NCBI GenBank assembly: GCA_036004125.1
Contig: DASYRR010000170.1
Span: 15,611-79,610, forward strand
Length of the DNA stretch: 64,000 nucleotides
Source of the DNA: Pyrinomonadaceae bacterium
Lineage (GTDB): Bacteria > Acidobacteriota > Blastocatellia > Pyrinomonadales > Pyrinomonadaceae
Reading direction: 5' to 3'
Positions 2,813 through 41,007 of this stretch are shown here, piece by piece. The position numbers were made by a program, and so were the translations under genes. The notes below the pieces were generated by a model. That model ran no database searches and was not told the DNA's origin. It saw only the letters and a program-made list of their open reading frames with translations. The first letter of the stretch is position 1. Every line of letters starts with the position of its first letter.

Positions 2813-3890
2813 TCATGGGGCACGACCTCTGGGAGGGAGTGGCGCGAGCAGCGTGAGTGGCCCGCCGCAGTGCGGACAAGTTAGCACCGTCAGCGGCTCG
2901 GAGGTTTTTACAGCAGCTGACTTTAGTTTGCTGGTGGTGAGAGAGAGCAGTTGTCTGGCCTTCTGTAGCAGTTGCCGATGGGCCGGGCTGAGCAGGCCGT
3001 AATAACGGACCTTGATGAACCTATTTGGGGAGCACGTGTTGGAGGAAGCGACGAATGAACTCTTCGGCAGTGATGGTGCAAGGCTGGAGTTGGTCAGTGG
3101 CCGACTCTTTGTAAGTGAAAGTGACCGTGCCCTGCGCCAATGAACGGAGGCGGTGGTTACTGAGAGCGACGCGAAAGATGTAAGGGGCGAGATATTTGAA
3201 GGCTTGCTCGCCGGAGCCCACCGCTTCGGTATGCACCACCCAGTCTTTCTGCCAGACTCGGGCCTCGACCAGGGCAAACAGTCCAGTCTTTTTCAGCTGA
3301 TCACGAAACTTGGCACGGAAGATCCTGGAGAGTGCTTTGACGGGCACGAGAAAGTCTTTCCGGGCAGCACGCCAGCGGCCGTCAGCAGTCAGGCCACCAC
3401 CGGTGACGAGGTAATGAACGTGGGGATGATAGAGCAACTGTCTGGTCCAGGTGTGAAGTACGCCGACCATACCGAGGCGAGCACCGACGAAGCGCGGGTC
3501 CTGGGCCAGTTGCAGTAAGGCCGCGGCAGAGGCACGAAAGAGCAGGTTGTAGATCGTCTTCTGCTGGCTGCGGGCCAGGGCGCGCAACTCGGCGGGCAGG
3601 GTGAAGGTGACGAGGAAGTGAGGAGTGGCCAGCAGCAGCTGCTTTTGCTGCTGGAGCCATTCATGGGCCTGCTCGTTCTGGCACTTGGGGCAGTGGCGGT
3701 TCTTGCAGGAGTGATAGCTGTAACGTTGTTCGTCGCAGTGGGCGCAATAATAGAGTTGGCCGCCGCGGGTGGCGGTGCGACAGGTTTCGATGTCCTGCAT
3801 GGTCCGCAGATGTGAGGGCAGCATCCGGTCGTTGAACTTGGCTCGATACGCAGGCCCATGCAGCCCAAAGATCTCGGCCACTTCCAGCAT
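2813..3890 (-). pseudogene. IS91-family HUH/Y2 rolling-circle transposase, interrupted by a 1-nt frameshift near 3022
   Basis: Zn-binding N-terminus (CAHCDEQRYSYHSCKNRHCPKC), HUH-type HPHVHYLV, and a YLAPY tyrosine pair. The main ORF stops at ...FLQHVLPK*. The expected continuation FIKVRYYGLLS...CPHCGG is in ORF 2813..3277, one frame over. Confidence 0.85.
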
Positions 3891-33347: not shown

Positions 33348-33361
33348 GCGACCCACTGGTT
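33348..33361 (-). repeat. 14-bp remnant of the tRNA-Lys 3' half (degenerate att junction)
   Basis: GCGACCCACTGGTT equals tRNA positions 40958..40971. The following CGAGATGAATTGGT resembles CCAGATGAATTGGT at about 40.6 kb. Confidence 0.45.
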
Positions 33362-33510
33362 CGAGATGAATTGGTCGCGGCGAGTGCAGCATGACGGGTC
33401 AAACGTTGTGACGCTGAGAGTTACATAGAGGTGAACCCTCACGCACGTTTCAAGTGGTTCGAGCTTGTTTTCTTATGCGACGGAGTTAAGTTATTGATAG
33501 GATGGGTTAT

Positions 33511-33551
33511 GAGCCGAGCAGGACTCGAACCTGCGACCCACTGGTTAAAAG
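33511..33551 (-). repeat. 41-bp perfect direct repeat of the tRNA-Lys 3' half (distal att site)
   Basis: GAGCCGAGCAGGACTCGAACCTGCGACCCACTGGTTAAAAG is identical to 40936..40976. Confidence 0.9.
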
Positions 33552-33872: not shown

Positions 33873-34088
33873 CTATGATTTATCTAGGAGCGATAGCTCC
33901 TCTAGGACTAGGTTCTCGCCAATCTTCAGTCGAACAGGTCGGCCGAGACCATCTCTGACTTCACAACCGACGGCTGAGGCCGAATCAAAAACTTCGAGTT
34001 CTGTTTCGAGTGATTCCACATCCGTGTAGGATTCGACAGTACCATCCTCAAACCTAACGGAGATTGGAAAGAGTGGTTTAGGATTCAT
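33873..34088 (-). CDS. 71-aa acidic protein, putative cognate immunity protein of the Rhs toxin
   Basis: Starts 4 nt after the Rhs stop on the same strand. Acidic (ESYTDVESLETELEVFD). Position is typical of Rhs immunity genes. Confidence 0.55.
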   Translation of the reverse strand: MNPKPLFPISVRFEDGTVESYTDVESLETELEVFDSASAVGCEVRDGLGRPVRLKIGENLVLEELSLLDKS

Positions 34089-34092
34089 AAGA

Positions 34093-37000
34093 TCATAATT
34101 TCCTACCAGTCCAGAATCCGCGATGCAGCTTAATTGCTTTCTTTGTTAACCCCCAGTGCCAGTGGAGAATCTTGCGTGGACCGAGACTCTTTATATTGTG
34201 CCAATCTAGAGCAAAACGTCGTACTCCAAACCTGTACACATTGATCCCCCCACCTCCGGCATTCGGATAACGCAAGAATCGTATTCCCCAGCCACCTGCC
34301 TTCGCTACTTCCGCACCCGTAACGACATCCCAAACAACACCCGCTGCTTCGCCTCCAGTGTAAAACCAAGACGCTTCTCGCTCAGCATTATCTTGATCCC
34401 ATAACCTCCCTGCGGACTCTCCACCAAGCAGCTTCGCCAACCCTCTCGAAGCATATTTTGAGCCTCCAAATGTTATCCACCCCGAAAACCCTACAACGCT
34501 GGTAAGGGCTTTATCAGTACCAATACTGAGACTTCGACCCAACCTCTCCCAGATCGAATAACCCGCATAAATTGTGATGTCACAAGCACCGGGCGGACAC
34601 GGGCCGGTCAAGCCAGGGACATCACCCGGGCGGTAGGTACCGTCTTGACCCTGCAAACTGAAGCCCAGGCCGCCAGATCGACCGAATGCCCTAATCGCGC
34701 CATAGACATTCCATGCAGTTAATCCGAGACCCGCAATTAGGCCAACTGGGCCAGGCACAAATTGAGCTATGAGGCCCAGGGAGCCCACGGCTATTCCGGT
34801 GATCGCTGCCACCTCAACCGCTAAAGCAGCCGCAGTCGCTCCCGCGACCCCGGTAGCAGACAGAGCCCCTGCAAGAGCGGGGAGCATTACGAGGCTCACT
34901 ATGCCGACGACAATGAGCGCTACCGACACAGCGATTCCAATCCACTTGAATACCTTCTTCAAGAAGCTAAAGAAGCCGAGTCCACTCGGATCGGTGTTGT
35001 TGACTGGATCATTCGTGCAGTAAGCATAGAGATTGAGCGTTTGAGGATCCTCAAGATTTGTCGCATTGATGCCTGCAGGATCAACTTGGGTAAACCTTCC
35101 TTGCTGCGAGTCGTAATGGCGATTGACGGCGTAATCGAGAGTTGTGGTTAAGGATCGATCATAAGAAGTGAATCGTCGGTTGGTTGGTGTTCCCACACCT
35201 TCCGCAGCCAGTACAGTGCCAAAGGGCAAGTTAACTTGTTCGGACCAATTGCCGGTTGAAGGATTCGTCTCTATGCGTGTTCCTAATCGATCTGGGTGAT
35301 GATATTCGACGGCTTCGCCCCCAGTGCCATTCGGCGTCAACGTAGAAAGCAGACGGTTTCCGAGATGAACGTAACTCTTCGACCATGCGGGATTGACGGA
35401 CCCTCCGATCTCAATGTATTCCGCGATGACGGAGAAGCCTTCCGCGATGTAGTAAGTTCGGGTATTCGATTCTTCAGTGATTAATCTCTGATTGTCGTCC
35501 CCGTACGTGTAGCTGGCAACCACCGTTTGATTGTCATCTTTCACCCTGACCAGCCGATTGGCCGCGTCGTACTGAAAACGCTGCCACTGAGGGCTGCTTC
35601 CCGGAACGAAGGTGCGCGTCTGATTGCCCGTTGCGTCGTAATTCCACCCGTCGTTGGCTATGCGGTTCGTCGCTTGGTTGTACGCAATGCCTTGCAAGCC
35701 ATCGCGCGGAATCGTCACGCCCACAGGAGGTGCGTACGGGCTTATGCCTGCAACCTTCGTGTAGAACTCTGGCGCCCAGGCGAAGCCGTTGCGCACCTCA
35801 GCACGGCTCGTCCCATTGTTCAGTGTCGCTTCCCAGGAAGCCCAGCCGCCCGAGTCCGGATCACGATAGAGATAAGCCTTGTATAGGTCGTAAACATAAT
35901 CATGGTTGTTGCGATTTCGAGTGGCGTATTCCTGCGAGCTGAACAGGCTCTCACCCAGATTCTGCATTCCGGAGAGAAATTGCGACTGCCCCTGCGCGTA
36001 GGCTGATTGTAGCGTTGATAACCACGAACTCAGCTCGCTACTGGTAGGCTGGCGGTTCAATGCACCCTGATAGAAGTTCTTAATGTAGTCTTCAAGAATG
36101 AAGGAATAGACATTACGATTGCCAAAGCGATCGTATTCATACCGCTGTGCCCAGATGACGTTCTGCCCTCCAGTGGCTCGAATCAAGCGATCGAGCGCAT
36201 CGTATTCAAAGCCACGGTTTTTTGTGTTATCGAGATTATTGACGATCTTCGTCAGCTGGCCCGTGCGCTTGCCGTTCACGCCTGCGTAATCGTAAGAGAG
36301 ATTCAAAAGCGTCGAGCCGTTGCGCGACACGGTTTGGTTTTCAAGCAGTCCCGTCTGGAAATTGTAACCGTAAGATTCGTTGACTTGGTTCGTGCCAGTT
36401 CCGACGCTGAGCGAAGTCGTCTGGCTGCCAGCGTTGTAAACAATATTTGACGCTTGCGTTTGGCCGTCGAAGGTGAGCCCGCTCAAACGACTTGCAATGT
36501 CGTAACTGTGCTCGACAAACTTGCGGGGAGCGGCGCCATTGCCATATTCCGCTGGGTAAAGCACTCGCCAAACTCGATCAAGCGAGTCGTAATTGTAGTC
36601 CGTGTCAAATGCGAAACCCGGCCGGCTAGTTAGTGTCAATGTCTTCGAATTGATCCGACCTTCTGTATCGAAACCATAACTTTCGGTCGAAACGCCTGCG
36701 GTCGCGACGCTCGCCAGTTGCGTCACATCCAAGAGCTGCGCGCTGTAAGATTTGGTGCGGTAGCCGTAGGTGATCGTGGCCGCAGGTAGAATCGGATTGC
36801 TGGTGTCACCAAAGCCACTCGTGTCCCAGGAAACCGATTGCAAACGATTCAACGGATCGTTATTGTAACTGAAAACAGTCTTCACGCCACGCGCGTCAGT
36901 TCGCGAAATGAGATTCGATCGCTCGTCGTAAGTGAACACATCGCTCCAAGTGCCTGAGCCCACATACGCTCCCGCATCGTTAAGCGTGGGATTCATCTCA

Positions 37001-40000
37001 GCCAACTTCTGCGCGGTCCGTCTTCCCAGTGAATCGTACTTAAACGAGCGCGTTTGCTGGACTTGGTTGCCCGACATTGAATTGATGGTGATCAGGTTAC
37101 CAAGTGTGTTGTAGGCATAGGTCGTTGCCATTCCCGCGCTGACGGAGCCATTGCCCCAAAAGATGGGCTCAACAACTTCGACCAAACGACCGCTAGCATC
37201 GGTGCGTCCCCAACGCTCGCGGCCCCAGGCGTCCTGCACGCGCGTAGTCTCACCTGGTGCAGTGCTGGCCACGTCCGGCCGATTTGGTTCGTTGTAGAAG
37301 CTCTGTGTCAAACTGCCATCAGGTGCTGTCACCGTGGCTGTACGTCCCAGAGCATCATAGGTCGTTATGGTCCACTGTAGAGTATCGCCATTGCGATAAG
37401 GCCGCGTTTGTTGCGTAGCTTGTCCTATGTTGTTGTAAATCGTATCCACGAAATCCCAAACTCCGTTCACCCCTAAAGCCTTTTCCTGACGTACCTGCCC
37501 GCGCCCATTGAGGTACTTCACATTCTGATCGGCAATTGTTGTGTGTGTTGGGTGCACCTCAAGATAGGTTGTCTGGGTTACTGTCAGCGACGAATCATTG
37601 TATTCGTAATCCGTGTGCGCGCCGGTTGGCGAGATGGACCTAATTACACGCAGTGAATTTGGGTCATAGACGGTTTCGGACGTCCGGTTATTGGCATCCG
37701 ACACATATTTTCCCAAGCCAGTATTGAAATCGTAACTCGCGCTAGTGGTCACCTGCGCGTAGGGATCGGTCGCCGAGCCGTGCGTTTTCGACTGCGGGTA
37801 TGCATAATTCGTATCGGTGCTGTAACTAAACGTAGTTTGTTCGCAACAGGAGGTCGAGGCTTTCACCAGATTGCCGGTGACATCGTAGCGCCGGGTTTCG
37901 GCCACTGCACCGGTGAGGTTAAGAGCATCGGCGTAAGTCGTCACCTGGGTGACGTTGCCGCGATAGTCGGTCGAAGCGTCGTAAGGGCAGACCCAGATCT
38001 GGTTGCAGTAACCGTCACAACCACCTTCCCCCCAGGGACAGCCACCAGTACAGTCCGGATCGTTCCAGTCCACATCCCAATAGCAGTAGCCTTCCTCTTC
38101 CGCGTGCGGATTAGCAGCCTGATCGTGCATCACAACGCCGGGGGCGGCCGTGAGCAACTGCCCGTCGTACTGGAATTCCGTGCGCGAAACTCGCGTCACA
38201 TTGTCAGCGGCATAAATTTCAACTGTCAAAGGCAGATTCAAGATGTGACGGCCATAGCAGCCCGTGCTGTAACACGTTCCCGTGTAATTTGCACTGTTTT
38301 GATAAGTCGTCCGAGTTGAGCGGAGGAGTGTTATTCCGCCGTAATCATAATCGCGAAGCTCCGTGACCTGGTTGTAAACGGGACCATAACTGAACTCAGC
38401 CGCAGTTTTTTGGCCGCGTTCATCAAATTTTTCGACGCGCGTCGGACGCGGAGAATTGTAGGCGCCCTGCTCCCAGCTTGACGTGCTCTTCTGAAGCGGA
38501 TTTGCCTCGTCTGTCGTGAAGGTTCTATCTTCATAGATCAAACCGTCATTCCATTGGCCCGGTGCGTTGTAGGAGTATTGCTTACTCTTCGTGAGGTTTG
38601 GCAACGTTATTATAGTGGTGCGTGGATTATCATTGTCATGGACCTCATAACCAGTCACAGCTTGGATCAAGGTGGCCCCTCCGTCCGGTGTCCAGCGCTC
38701 CGTCATCGTCGTGTAAGTAGGAGCATCCGTGAGGTTGTAATCCGGTGTGAGGGGGTAGTTGTATTCTTCTTTTCGCGTGACCGATCCCTGATAGATCGTA
38801 CCCATGTCGGTGAGCGGCGCGCCGGAAAAAGACATCCCGCGTTGTTCGATTACTTTCGCGAGCATGCCGTAGCTGGAATATGAATCGGAGTCGTTGAGCC
38901 AGTAGCCAGTGCCCGTCCCTGGATAGTAGATGCCATCAACAACCCAGGGCGCAGGATTCGGCACTACCGTGCTTTGAATCTGTGGATATGAGAATCCGTA
39001 GTTCAACCCAAGCTGGTGATAGTGCAGACGCACTAACTCGCGCGTCCCGCCGCTCAAGCCAGGTGCGGTCATGGCCGTCAACAGATTGTTGTAGTCGTAA
39101 TGAAAGTTGATGACGCGGCCTAACGTATCCGTAACCGTTTGAATCAGCGGTCCGGAGTTGTTGACGTAGGTGATAGTAATGTAGTTGCCATTAGCGTCTT
39201 CGATGAACGTTGGGAAGACCCCACCACCTAGCTGGGAATATGCGCCATAGTTGATGAGGGTGCCGTTGGGTAACTTTGCTTGCGCCGAAGTGATTACTCC
39301 GTTCGTGCCGGTCCAATATGTGTAATCAATAAACGACCCGTCGGTCGTATGCATCACGCCGTAGGTGCCCCAATTGTAAATGGTGATGTTGCCCGTGTAG
39401 CTGTGTCGGGTTCCGTCGGCATCGACGAGCATGCAACCCGTGTAAACACCTATACCCAGCAGCTTTCCGAAACCCAAATTGAAGCCCGGCGCCGGCCAGC
39501 CGCGATCGTTGTCATAGCTCATTTGCGTGTTCGCCTTGGTCCAGATGCGGGAGTTGTAAGCGAGCCCGAGCGAAATGTTGATGCCGCGACCGGGCGCGCT
39601 ATAGATTGGCGCTGCAAACTGGAAATTGCCGCTGCCTGCGCCGCCATCCGTGTTCGCGCCTGGAGGATCGCCGACGCGATTCTCGGGATCGTCAGCCGAC
39701 CAATAATTGCTGCTGTCCCAACCGCCACCAACCCAGTACGGCATTGGATTCGGGTCAATTATAGTTGGCGCTTCCGAGGCGTGCGACCGCTTAGCTAATT
39801 CGGCTGCCATCGGACGTCTACTCCTCTTCGCTGGTCCTTTTTCAGTGGTTTTCTGTTGCTTGTTAGATGCAACCTTGACTATAGGAACGTCGCGCGACGA
39901 TACGGCTCGCGTGCCCGTCGGCGTCAGATCTAGATTGGGACGAACGCCAGGGCGTACTGTCGCCGTGGTTTGCGCGGACCGCCCAGCGGCCTCACCTCTT

Positions 40001-40089
40001 ATCGTGAATATACCGGGCCGACAGGACGGAATTCTCCGTGCCGCGAGATAGGAGCCCGCTGAGTTGGCGTTGAGGACTCGGCCGTCCAT
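34093..40089 (-). CDS. Rhs/YD-repeat polymorphic toxin, main ORF
   Basis: Dozens of YD-type repeats. RHS core end is YDSQQGRFTQVDP...NLYAYCTNDPVNNTDPSGL, followed by a 294-aa C-terminal region (34096..34977). Confidence 0.9.
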   Translation of the reverse strand: MDGRVLNANSAGSYLAARRIPSCRPGIFTIRGEAAGRSAQTTATVRPGVRPNLDLTPTGTRAVSSRDVPIVKVASNKQQKTTEKGPAKRSRRPMAAELAKRSHASEAPTIIDPNPMPYWVGGGWDSSNYWSADDPENRVGDPPGANTDGGAGSGNFQFAAPIYSAPGRGINISLGLAYNSRIWTKANTQMSYDNDRGWPAPGFNLGFGKLLGIGVYTGCMLVDADGTRHSYTGNITIYNWGTYGVMHTTDGSFIDYTYWTGTNGVITSAQAKLPNGTLINYGAYSQLGGGVFPTFIEDANGNYITITYVNNSGPLIQTVTDTLGRVINFHYDYNNLLTAMTAPGLSGGTRELVRLHYHQLGLNYGFSYPQIQSTVVPNPAPWVVDGIYYPGTGTGYWLNDSDSYSSYGMLAKVIEQRGMSFSGAPLTDMGTIYQGSVTRKEEYNYPLTPDYNLTDAPTYTTMTERWTPDGGATLIQAVTGYEVHDNDNPRTTIITLPNLTKSKQYSYNAPGQWNDGLIYEDRTFTTDEANPLQKSTSSWEQGAYNSPRPTRVEKFDERGQKTAAEFSYGPVYNQVTELRDYDYGGITLLRSTRTTYQNSANYTGTCYSTGCYGRHILNLPLTVEIYAADNVTRVSRTEFQYDGQLLTAAPGVVMHDQAANPHAEEEGYCYWDVDWNDPDCTGGCPWGEGGCDGYCNQIWVCPYDASTDYRGNVTQVTTYADALNLTGAVAETRRYDVTGNLVKASTSCCEQTTFSYSTDTNYAYPQSKTHGSATDPYAQVTTSASYDFNTGLGKYVSDANNRTSETVYDPNSLRVIRSISPTGAHTDYEYNDSSLTVTQTTYLEVHPTHTTIADQNVKYLNGRGQVRQEKALGVNGVWDFVDTIYNNIGQATQQTRPYRNGDTLQWTITTYDALGRTATVTAPDGSLTQSFYNEPNRPDVASTAPGETTRVQDAWGRERWGRTDASGRLVEVVEPIFWGNGSVSAGMATTYAYNTLGNLITINSMSGNQVQQTRSFKYDSLGRRTAQKLAEMNPTLNDAGAYVGSGTWSDVFTYDERSNLISRTDARGVKTVFSYNNDPLNRLQSVSWDTSGFGDTSNPILPAATITYGYRTKSYSAQLLDVTQLASVATAGVSTESYGFDTEGRINSKTLTLTSRPGFAFDTDYNYDSLDRVWRVLYPAEYGNGAAPRKFVEHSYDIASRLSGLTFDGQTQASNIVYNAGSQTTSLSVGTGTNQVNESYGYNFQTGLLENQTVSRNGSTLLNLSYDYAGVNGKRTGQLTKIVNNLDNTKNRGFEYDALDRLIRATGGQNVIWAQRYEYDRFGNRNVYSFILEDYIKNFYQGALNRQPTSSELSSWLSTLQSAYAQGQSQFLSGMQNLGESLFSSQEYATRNRNNHDYVYDLYKAYLYRDPDSGGWASWEATLNNGTSRAEVRNGFAWAPEFYTKVAGISPYAPPVGVTIPRDGLQGIAYNQATNRIANDGWNYDATGNQTRTFVPGSSPQWQRFQYDAANRLVRVKDDNQTVVASYTYGDDNQRLITEESNTRTYYIAEGFSVIAEYIEIGGSVNPAWSKSYVHLGNRLLSTLTPNGTGGEAVEYHHPDRLGTRIETNPSTGNWSEQVNLPFGTVLAAEGVGTPTNRRFTSYDRSLTTTLDYAVNRHYDSQQGRFTQVDPAGINATNLEDPQTLNLYAYCTNDPVNNTDPSGLGFFSFLKKVFKWIGIAVSVALIVVGIVSLVMLPALAGALSATGVAGATAAALAVEVAAITGIAVGSLGLIAQFVPGPVGLIAGLGLTAWNVYGAIRAFGRSGGLGFSLQGQDGTYRPGDVPGLTGPCPPGACDITIYAGYSIWERLGRSLSIGTDKALTSVVGFSGWITFGGSKYASRGLAKLLGGESAGRLWDQDNAEREASWFYTGGEAAGVVWDVVTGAEVAKAGGWGIRFLRYPNAGGGGINVYRFGVRRFALDWHNIKSLGPRKILHWHWGLTKKAIKLHRGFWTGRKL

Positions 40090-40436
40090 CTAACGGTCAC
40101 CCCGCCAACTGCGTTGCCATCGCGATCGTATCCAACAGCAACAAACCTGACGCGCTCGGCTAAATCAACTGTTACATTGCTTGGATAGATTTCCAGCCGA
40201 ACAACTTTAGCATCGCGTTCCGATTGTCTCTCTTGTGGCTGGATCAACGGAACTGCGAGGCCCTGAAGGAATTTGCTCATGCCACTGGAGTGGTACCAGA
40301 ACGCCCAACTTGTTCGCTGCTTTTCAGCGATTACGACGATCGTTTTTGGCGCAGCCGGGGATGAACTCGACAGCAGGCAAATTACCAACACGATGGTCAC
40401 GATGCGATTTAGTGAGACAAGTCTTAGACGGGCCAT
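39999..40436 (-). CDS. signal peptide plus Big_2-like Ig domain ORF, probably the detached N-terminus of the Rhs toxin
   Basis: MARLRLVSLNRIVTIVLVICLLSSSSPAAP signal. VVRLEIYPSNVTVDLAERVRFVAVGYDRDGNAVGGVTVRWTA. Overlaps the Rhs ORF by 91 nt in another frame. Confidence 0.65.
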   Translation of the reverse strand: MARLRLVSLNRIVTIVLVICLLSSSSPAAPKTIVVIAEKQRTSWAFWYHSSGMSKFLQGLAVPLIQPQERQSERDAKVVRLEIYPSNVTVDLAERVRFVAVGYDRDGNAVGGVTVRWTAESSTPTQRAPISRHGEFRPVGPVYSR

Positions 40437-40857
40437 AAGCGTGCTCCTGGTAGGTGAAGACGGTTGGATACATTGAATCCACAAGTGGTCGTCGGTTCAT
40501 CTGACCGTGCCTTGCTGGCACAGCCATCGACACAAATCATGAACCTCTTGCGAAGTATTCGTTTGACGTGAAGCGCCGCACGAAAACGAATGCTACGACT
40601 CCCCGAATTCGATCCCAGATGAATTGGTTTTGGTGATCTTCGCGAGGGATCACCGTTAGAGTTCGAACACTACAACCTTGAGTGACTCAATTACTCAAGG
40701 CTAATTAACTGGGAATTGTGCGTGCTTAAATTAGGCGAAGCGCGACTACAGTGGGGGCTGATGCGCGGCAATCTACGCCCGAGTTGGTCCACTGTCAAAT
40801 GACATTTCTGTTGCGTCTATTTTGCAATCTTGCGACGAAACTATCGCAGGGAGAATT

Positions 40858-40931: not shown

Positions 40932-41007
<76 letters not shown>

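Follow-up and report, generated by a model that had tools for sequence, protein, structure and literature searches.

The Rhs gene and its C-terminal tail

The analyzed window is a stretch of 64,000 nucleotides (nt) from contig DASYRR010000170.1 of a Pyrinomonadaceae bacterium. Its minus strand carries an open reading frame (ORF) for an Rhs/YD-repeat polymorphic toxin (34093..40089; 1998 amino acids (aa), read from the ATG at 40089), and a small ORF for an acidic 71-aa protein (33873..34088, minus strand) begins 4 nt past the Rhs stop codon. Here we describe how the Rhs protein appears to end in a compact 66-residue toxin core that pairs with this small protein. The NCBI version of the Rhs protein is 1905 aa long (HEV8368865.1) and is labeled only "DUF4214 domain-containing protein". 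The name is taken from a DUF4214 match (expectation value (E) 1.5e-17), which is inserted inside the Rhs repeats at aa 1381-1445 (window ~35755-35949).

Pfam and NCBIfam scans identify the protein as an Rhs shell, with seven RHS_repeat matches (PF05593, E 2.3e-15) and a YD repeat (TIGR01643). The Rhs-associated core follows at aa 1622-1704 (34978..35226, minus strand; TIGR03696, E 2.6e-16, profile positions 3-76 of 76). This match stops exactly at ...CTNDPVNNTDPSGL, the autoproteolysis motif PVNNTDPSGL, which takes the form PxxxxDPxGL and stands before the variable tail. The same PxxxxDPxGL motif precedes the toxin core in 18 relatives. As the Rhs-associated core ends at NTDPSGL, the tail comprises aa 1705-1998 (294 aa, window 34096-34977). 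A tail of this length after DPSGL had been proposed in a first-pass annotation of the sequence, in agreement with both the 1998-aa translation and the TIGR03696 end point.

Behind the membrane segment, the same annotation had placed a single soluble domain of about 200 aa. Instead, this region divides into a linker without order, a module of helices and a beta-rich core of 66 aa, so that the tail as a whole consists of four parts: Gly/Ala-rich hydrophobic helices, the linker, a helical pre-toxin adaptor and the C-terminal core. AlphaFold2 was run on the 205 soluble residues and on the core alone, in both cases using family alignments. Residues 1-25 of the 205-aa model are disordered, with a predicted local distance difference test score (pLDDT) below 50.

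The 66-residue core and its family

The toxin core spans aa 1933-1998 (34096..34293, minus strand) and is predicted to form four antiparallel strands and a short helix, after which a C-terminal tail follows. AlphaFold2 assigns it a pLDDT of 92-95, and the core-only model reaches a predicted template modeling score of 0.72. The core is extremely basic, with an isoelectric point (pI) of 12.0 and a charge of +13. Basic character is shared by all 39 aligned cores, which have a median charge of +11.

A word-indexed search yields just three close relatives, all of them Rhs C-terminal fragments from soil metagenomes. An exhaustive HMMER search that used the soluble part of the tail (205 residues) as query returns at least 53 representatives at E<=1e-3, and almost all of these match at query residues ~105-205 only. 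The core is also found 3' of GGxFxNGA-type regions typical of non-Rhs polymorphic toxins (P0016, P0038), and in Vreelandella the copy of the toxin is an ORF of 100 aa. The core family spans several phyla, where its members belong to Rhs proteins and to polymorphic toxins of other kinds.

Alignments of 34-44 sequences share the motif G[WY]xhxFxRYxNAGGGGhNhhKxGxRRFAhDWHxFKxxGx4RxHYHxGxTKSQMKKHRPWQGGW. Five residues are invariant, namely G1946, G1948, H1964, H1976 and H1989 (G28, G30, H46, H58 and H71 in the 39-sequence alignment), while Y1941, R1957, D1962, H1978, G1980 and R1990 are nearly so. Across the 39 sequences, position 1962 (D44) is Asp in 36, Glu in two and His in one; H1978 (H60) is replaced once by Asn, R1957 once by Tyr and Y1941 once by Phe. 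Over the whole family, residue 1978 can be His, Asp or Asn, and residue 1962 can be Asp, Glu or His. Such residue swaps are typical of metal ligands. Three representatives (P0045, P0049 and P0052) have a shorter core, in which PHIDIPxxGxNHWPW stands in place of HYHxGxTKSQMKKHRPW and H60 is changed to Asp; the His/Asp positions are kept and the short helix is lost.

Placed on the AlphaFold2 model, the Gly-x-Gly lies in the loop between strands 1 and 2, the D-x-H (as D-W-H) closes strand 3, the H-x-H lies on strand 4, and the His-Arg pair that includes H1989 comes after the short helix. In this arrangement D44, H46, H58 and H60 would share one face of the beta3-beta4 hairpin. The conservation pattern, together with the swaps at 1962 and 1978, hence suggests that one face of the sheet bears a cluster of residues for metal binding or acid-base chemistry.

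Legionella holds a distinct form of the core. Four representatives (P0057-P0060) are stand-alone proteins of ~110 aa (107-131), each made of one N-terminal hydrophobic helix and the core. At the loci of Legionella moravica and its relatives (L014-L016, gene 3001-3354), no immunity-like ORF adjoins the gene, which is followed by a DnaJ-domain gene. These proteins may be host-directed effectors, or they may represent a non-toxic use of the core domain.

The 71-residue partner

The 71-aa protein (HEV8368864.1, hypothetical at NCBI) is an acidic, cytosolic protein with a pI of 4.3 and a charge of -8.5. The first-pass annotation had pointed to this ORF as lying in the immunity position, which accords with the 4-nt gap, the low pI and the conservation of the ORF with the core. 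A homologue lies directly 3' of the core in the three close relatives (L001-L003), at 56-69% identity. The same holds for nine of ten loci found with the core profile (L004-L008, L010 and the cut loci L011-L013), the exception (L009) being a truncated, divergent core. These loci come from Gammaproteobacteria, Cellvibrionaceae, Competibacteraceae, Hydrogenedentales, another Pyrinomonadaceae and Bacteroidetes. Three more loci carry the core-immunity pair (L017, L018 from Vreelandella sp. EE27, and L019). Among complete loci, the core has the immunity gene behind it in 14 of 15.

A profile search places at least 87 clusters in the immunity family, none of them with a Pfam domain. The named homologues are all called hypothetical, except for one fragment (P0088) called an RHS-repeat protein. 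Residues P8, F13, L31, E32, D46 and R50 are invariant within the motif FPIxVxF...NLEWFDS...VxDxxGRxVRLKV. The 82 immunity proteins no longer than 95 aa are without exception acidic, with a median charge of -9.5 and a maximum pI of 5.0. A signal peptide, or a hydrophobic or lipobox-like N-terminus, is present in none of the 82 (maximum 12-residue hydropathy 1.48). The identity matrices of toxins and immunity proteins correlate (r=0.58, Mantel p=0.0006); clade structure accounts for much of this signal, the coefficient falling to r=0.34 once the close clade is removed.

Two loci separate the immunity gene from the remainder of the tail. At L020:2001-3342 and L021:592-2012, the same adaptor leads into another tip (HHTF…SHLQLDLW), a different ORF lies directly 3' of it, and an orphan copy of the immunity gene is found further on. 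In L020, what is left of the displaced toxin end, GKHRVVIDYLEW, stands before the orphan gene. Both loci read as classic Rhs tip displacement. Since the orphan immunity gene persists after replacement of the tip, it belongs to the 66-aa core and not to the adaptor or the membrane segment. Taken together, the comparative data are strong evidence that the 71-aa protein is the immunity protein of the core. The first-pass annotation had named conservation of the small ORF with the tail as a point to check. The ORF proved to be conserved alongside the core: covariation with the immunity gene is confined to the last 66 aa and does not extend to the adaptor, which also precedes another tip with another downstream gene.

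Exchangeable modules upstream of the core

The first 90 residues of the tail form an optional membrane module (34708..34977, minus strand), in which an amphipathic GFFSFLKKVFKW is followed by two or three Gly/Ala-rich hydrophobic helices. Tail residues 5-75 are strongly hydrophobic, the Kyte-Doolittle profile peaking at 2.84 in a 19-residue window. Seven overlapping small-xxx-small-xxx-small motifs lie within tail aa 37-65, giving consecutive GxxxG-type motifs like those of Tde1. Both features bear out the glycine-zipper membrane segment of the first-pass annotation. P0001 has a homologous hydrophobic segment, P0002 has a different one in its place and P0003 has none. Of the 18 representatives with a visible Rhs cleavage motif, seven have a segment resembling a transmembrane (TM) helix before the core and 11 do not. 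Because only these seven have it, the membrane segment is an accessory module outside the predicted toxic unit.

The membrane module is followed by a linker that includes CPPGAC (34579..34707, minus strand) and is modeled at low confidence (pLDDT 36-63, residues 1-44 of the 205-aa model). The helical pre-toxin adaptor, VGFSGWITFGG...SWFYTGGEAAG (34294..34578, minus strand), comes next, with predicted helices at 53-79, 83-112 and 115-131 and a pLDDT of up to 90. It is related to the GFGDTLT...S.xY..G region of other members, most of which share the form VGF[SG]DTITFGG...S.xY..G. In P0006, P0008 and P0048 the adaptor is shared and the tip is different (...HHTFGxFGKLSHLQLDLW...).

Two further loci illustrate the variety of tails. 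At L004:4472-5868, 3' of the toxin-immunity pair, lies an array of orphan cassettes, each of which starts with a GFGDTLSxGITKWIR…CSDPCSYGKYSG pre-toxin module and runs out into an unrelated tip; this module has no Pfam pre-toxin domain match. At L017:3931-4830, an orphan Rhs tail consists nearly entirely of Gly-zipper hydrophobic helices and is followed by a 76-aa protein with two TM helices. This second pair is a contrast case, in which a putative membrane toxin is accompanied by a membrane immunity protein.

Searches for known families and folds

The tail and the 71-aa ORF have no match at E<=1 in Pfam, NCBIfam, PADLOC or PHROGs, and the same was found for ten further members of the core family and thirteen immunity homologues, none of which falls into a described family. 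Searches of PDB sequences with single sequences and with profiles gave no real match for the tail or the small ORF. They returned only 6a8y (E 2), in which 16 residues of a 26-aa peptide are matched and which was judged a chance hit, and NikA (E 0.17), obtained with the immunity profile. The failure of the first-pass annotation to assign the tail to a known toxin family is therefore matched by the profile libraries, the PDB sequences and Foldseek. No recognizable likeness was seen to the folds of HNH, colicin E3/E5/D, barnase/RelE, CdiA-CT or PT1/PT7. An RNase of the BECR/colicin E3 type is likewise not indicated, as none is found among the Foldseek PDB matches and Pfam gives no match.

The succession of D-W-H, H-W-H and a further His prompted the idea of an HNH/EndoVII nuclease, which found no profile or Foldseek support and is kept as a resemblance only. 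The 205-aa model does match retron HNH proteins, at a root-mean-square deviation of 15-19 Å, and no HNH structure aligned to the core. A literature search with the family motif strings returned no papers, and the strings are absent from the one supplementary file of Nachmias et al. that was consulted. The core and its partner thus make up a toxin-immunity family that is new, widespread and not yet annotated, inside the familiar framework of Rhs and polymorphic toxins.

Genomic setting

The Rhs and immunity genes are flanked by traces of integration. A tRNA-Lys(UUU) gene (40932..41007, minus strand) lies just upstream of the Rhs gene and marks one boundary. At the other, ~320 nt past the immunity gene, lies a perfect 42-nt direct repeat of the tRNA-Lys 3' half, with att-like character (33510..33551, minus strand). 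Since these two elements flank both genes, the pair lies in an island of ~7.4 kb, integrated at the tRNA and devoid of an integrase. Near 33350-33365 there is a further copy, shorter and partial (aaccagtgggtcgca). The scan of 20 neighboring ORFs shows housekeeping functions throughout (purA, glgA, Lon, ClpX, Rho, trigger factor, a MacB-type permease, a debranching enzyme and the like), and no PAAR, VgrG or type VI secretion system (T6SS) gene is among them. The Rhs ORF itself has no match to PAAR or another N-terminal trafficking domain, and delivery by a T6SS is not indicated.

The 5' end of the Rhs gene appears to be disturbed. An ORF in another frame (39999..40484, minus strand) codes for a Sec signal peptide (MARLRLVSLNRIVTIVLVICLLSSSSPAAP) and for the first part of an Ig-like domain, which continues in the Rhs frame (…GIFTIRGEAAGRSAQTTATV) after a 1-nt shift at a GGCCCGG run near 40012-40018. 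The splitting of the Ig-like domain over two frames indicates a 1-nt frameshift at this position. The shift is either a sequencing or assembly error, a disruption that turns the gene into a pseudogene, or a programmed shift.

Proposed mechanism and alternatives

We propose that the locus encodes an Rhs toxin with exchangeable tail modules, in which the last 66 residues are toxic and the 71-aa protein neutralizes them in the cytoplasm of the producer by direct binding. The core would be a cytoplasmic hydrolase, probably a nuclease. We assign this proposal a probability of about 0.5. After release of the tail, the Gly/Ala-rich helices, possibly aided by the adaptor, might help it to cross or enter the inner membrane of the target cell, as has been proposed for the Tde1 glycine zipper; they would be dispensable for toxicity itself. 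Once in the target cytoplasm, the core would act as a small hydrolase, in which D1962, H1964, H1976, H1978 and H1989 may cluster next to the glycine-rich loop, probably with a metal ion at the center.

The substrate would most likely be nucleic acid (as a DNase or an RNase), given the extreme basicity of the core and a strongly acidic partner that resembles a DNA mimic. For the core we favor the activity of a small nuclease that depends on a metal or on His, at somewhat less than even odds, for which the short DNase toxins PT1 and PT7 (bioRxiv 10.1101/2021.10.19.465003) and the colicin DNase/Im pairs are precedents; the main alternatives are another cytoplasmic hydrolase and a binder that acts stoichiometrically on nucleic acid. 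A cytoplasmic site of action is suggested by the soluble, signal-less nature of the immunity protein, which argues that neutralization takes place in the cytoplasm.

Several points weigh against this proposal. The geometry of the His/Asp cluster is deduced from strand parity. No enzymatic class is backed by a match in homology or fold, and models of HNH, EndoVII and BECR have no match to 14 members even at E<=1. Foldseek gives a best E of 0.49 for the 205-aa model and 1.3 for the core-only model against PDB, and 0.11 against BFVD, a negative of limited force given that Foldseek is weak for 66-residue beta domains. Four or five ligand-like residues within 66 aa could form a purely structural metal site. 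The Legionella copies, which have a membrane helix and no immunity gene, are hard to reconcile with an indiscriminate cytoplasmic nuclease. Export of this particular Rhs copy is uncertain given the apparent 5' frameshift. A further caveat is EsxX, a membrane toxin with a soluble cytoplasmic protector (PMC12744356). Such a reading of the present pair is weakened because the immunity protein also accompanies cores that have no hydrophobic segment.

A bolder version of the proposal appears rather unlikely to us. It holds that the core is a new fold with an unprecedented toxic activity, present in at least four phyla and re-used in Legionella as a membrane-anchored protein without immunity, possibly a host-directed effector, and that at this locus it is carried across the prey inner membrane by a self-inserting glycine-zipper module, independently of a receptor.

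Among the competing explanations, the core might be a non-enzymatic, metal-stabilized basic mini-domain, that is, a stoichiometric poison that binds an essential nucleic acid or the ribosome. The small size and the charge of +13 would suit such a role, the four or five ligand-like residues could serve a single structural zinc site, no catalytic fold is recognized, and membrane-tethered copies without immunity are tolerated in Legionella. The invariant Gly-Gly, Arg and Tyr beside the His residues suggest a substrate pocket instead. Moreover, nearly all polymorphic toxins of which only a few copies are delivered are enzymes, which counts against a stoichiometric poison. We consider this explanation unlikely.

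Slightly less probable still is a membrane-depolarizing or pore-forming toxin of the Tse5-CT/EsxX type. Here, the Gly/Ala-rich helices would themselves be the toxin, the 71-aa protein would do no more than shield them in the producer cytoplasm prior to export, and the basic core would anchor the tail to anionic lipids. Two or three TM-like helices with small-xxx-small motifs do stand straight after the cleavage site. Pores are formed by the encapsulated tail of another Rhs protein, Tse5 (PMC10684867), and the glycine-zipper toxin EsxX is paired with a soluble cytoplasmic immunity protein (PMC12744356). In addition, many cores end in a Trp-rich, interface-like stretch (HRPWQGGW), and the Legionella relatives are membrane-anchored. 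However, the immunity gene follows the core even where the hydrophobic segment is absent (P0003/L003, L004, L008, L010, L017 and L018), and the segment is confined to a minority of relatives, as described above. Between close relatives, it is the core that is conserved and not the sequence of the segment. The invariant residues are polar (His, Asp, Arg) rather than membrane-facing, and the locus has no membrane immunity gene of the kind that would accompany a Tse5-like toxin, in contrast to the truly hydrophobic neighboring tail at L017 with its two-TM partner. A role of the segment in translocation, suggested by analogy, fits a soluble, signal-less immunity protein better than pore formation does. 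The segment is hence best read as a putative delivery module and not as the toxin.

The single soluble domain of ~200 aa considered in the first-pass annotation is a very improbable toxic unit. The close relatives P0001 and P0002 do align across all 200 aa. Most family members, in contrast, match the last 70-90 aa of the tail only, and the Vreelandella toxin is far shorter than such a domain, its ORF being just 100 aa long. The helical part is found in front of another tip with another downstream gene, and AlphaFold2 sets it apart from the beta core. A periplasmic zinc peptidase of the LAS/M23 type that cuts peptidoglycan is the least probable of all: the D-x-H ... H-x-H ... H pattern on a four-stranded antiparallel sheet may recall lysostaphin-type enzymes, and the idea was rejected since the immunity proteins have no export signal (0/82 with a signal peptide or lipobox-like N-terminus), in line with the absence of any match to the Pfam M23, VanY and peptidase models and of any LAS enzyme in the Foldseek PDB results.

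Significance and comparison with known systems

Rhs tips harbor many toxic activities that are yet to be discovered. The present tip is unusually small, widespread in environmental bacteria and cleanly paired with a 70-aa immunity protein. A toxin of 66 aa and an antidote of 71 aa are simple to synthesize and to crystallize. If the activity is indeed new, the family would add an enzyme class and provide a compact toxin-antidote pair for counter-selection. As the membrane segment is present in some natural variants and missing from others, the family is well suited to studying how Rhs tails, once cleaved, get across the inner membrane of the target, and the immunity-less Legionella copies hint at a second, non-antibacterial use of the core domain.

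The closest framework is that of the Rhs/YD polymorphic toxins with a C-terminal toxin and an adjacent immunity gene, such as the T6SS Rhs effectors (PMC8636562). Shared features are the RHS repeats, the Rhs-associated core with PxxxxDPxGL, the variable tail and the immunity gene immediately 3', and the relatives of the present pair display the orphan tips, orphan immunity genes and tip displacement known from these effectors. Unlike the T6SS effectors, the protein described here has no PAAR, VgrG or T6SS gene among the ORFs scanned in the 64 kb, it apparently starts with a Sec signal and an Ig-like domain (frameshifted), and its tip and immunity protein lie outside the described families.

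Tde1 of Agrobacterium tumefaciens uses an N-terminal glycine zipper to permeabilize the prey inner membrane, which is needed for entry of the DNase (PMC10240207). The present tail resembles Tde1 in having small-xxx-small (GxxxG-like) hydrophobic helices upstream of a soluble toxin domain with a cytoplasmic site of action, which is putative here, and with a soluble immunity protein, and by analogy the helices may function alike. In contrast, Tde1 does not belong to the Rhs proteins, and the toxin it carries is a DNase of the Ntox15 HxxD type. The helices of the present protein are placed after the Rhs cleavage site and before the toxin, and they are missing from many members of the family. Tse5 (PA2684) of Pseudomonas aeruginosa is an Rhs pore-forming toxin (PMC10684867, PMC9637101). 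Both proteins combine an Rhs cocoon with a hydrophobic fragment straight after the C-terminal cleavage site, which inserts into membranes in Tse5 and is predicted to do so here. The hydrophobic fragment is the whole toxin in Tse5, whereas here a conserved basic beta-rich core follows and pairs with a soluble immunity protein.

In motif pattern only, the core also recalls the His-Me finger toxins (Pfam WHH, LHH, AHH, GHH and SHH), with a D-x-H hairpin, an H-x-H, a helix or turn with an invariant His, and the combination of a basic toxin with an acidic immunity protein. PT1/PIM1 and PT7/PIM7 are short DNase toxins of novel fold with acidic immunity proteins (Nachmias et al., bioRxiv 10.1101/2021.10.19.465003). 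Although the PDB profile search and Foldseek against PDB show no similarity to PT1 or PT7 in sequence or fold, the core is like them in having no similarity to known folds, and it shares with them a very small C-terminal toxin, conserved His/Asp residues, a positive surface and a small, negatively charged immunity protein.

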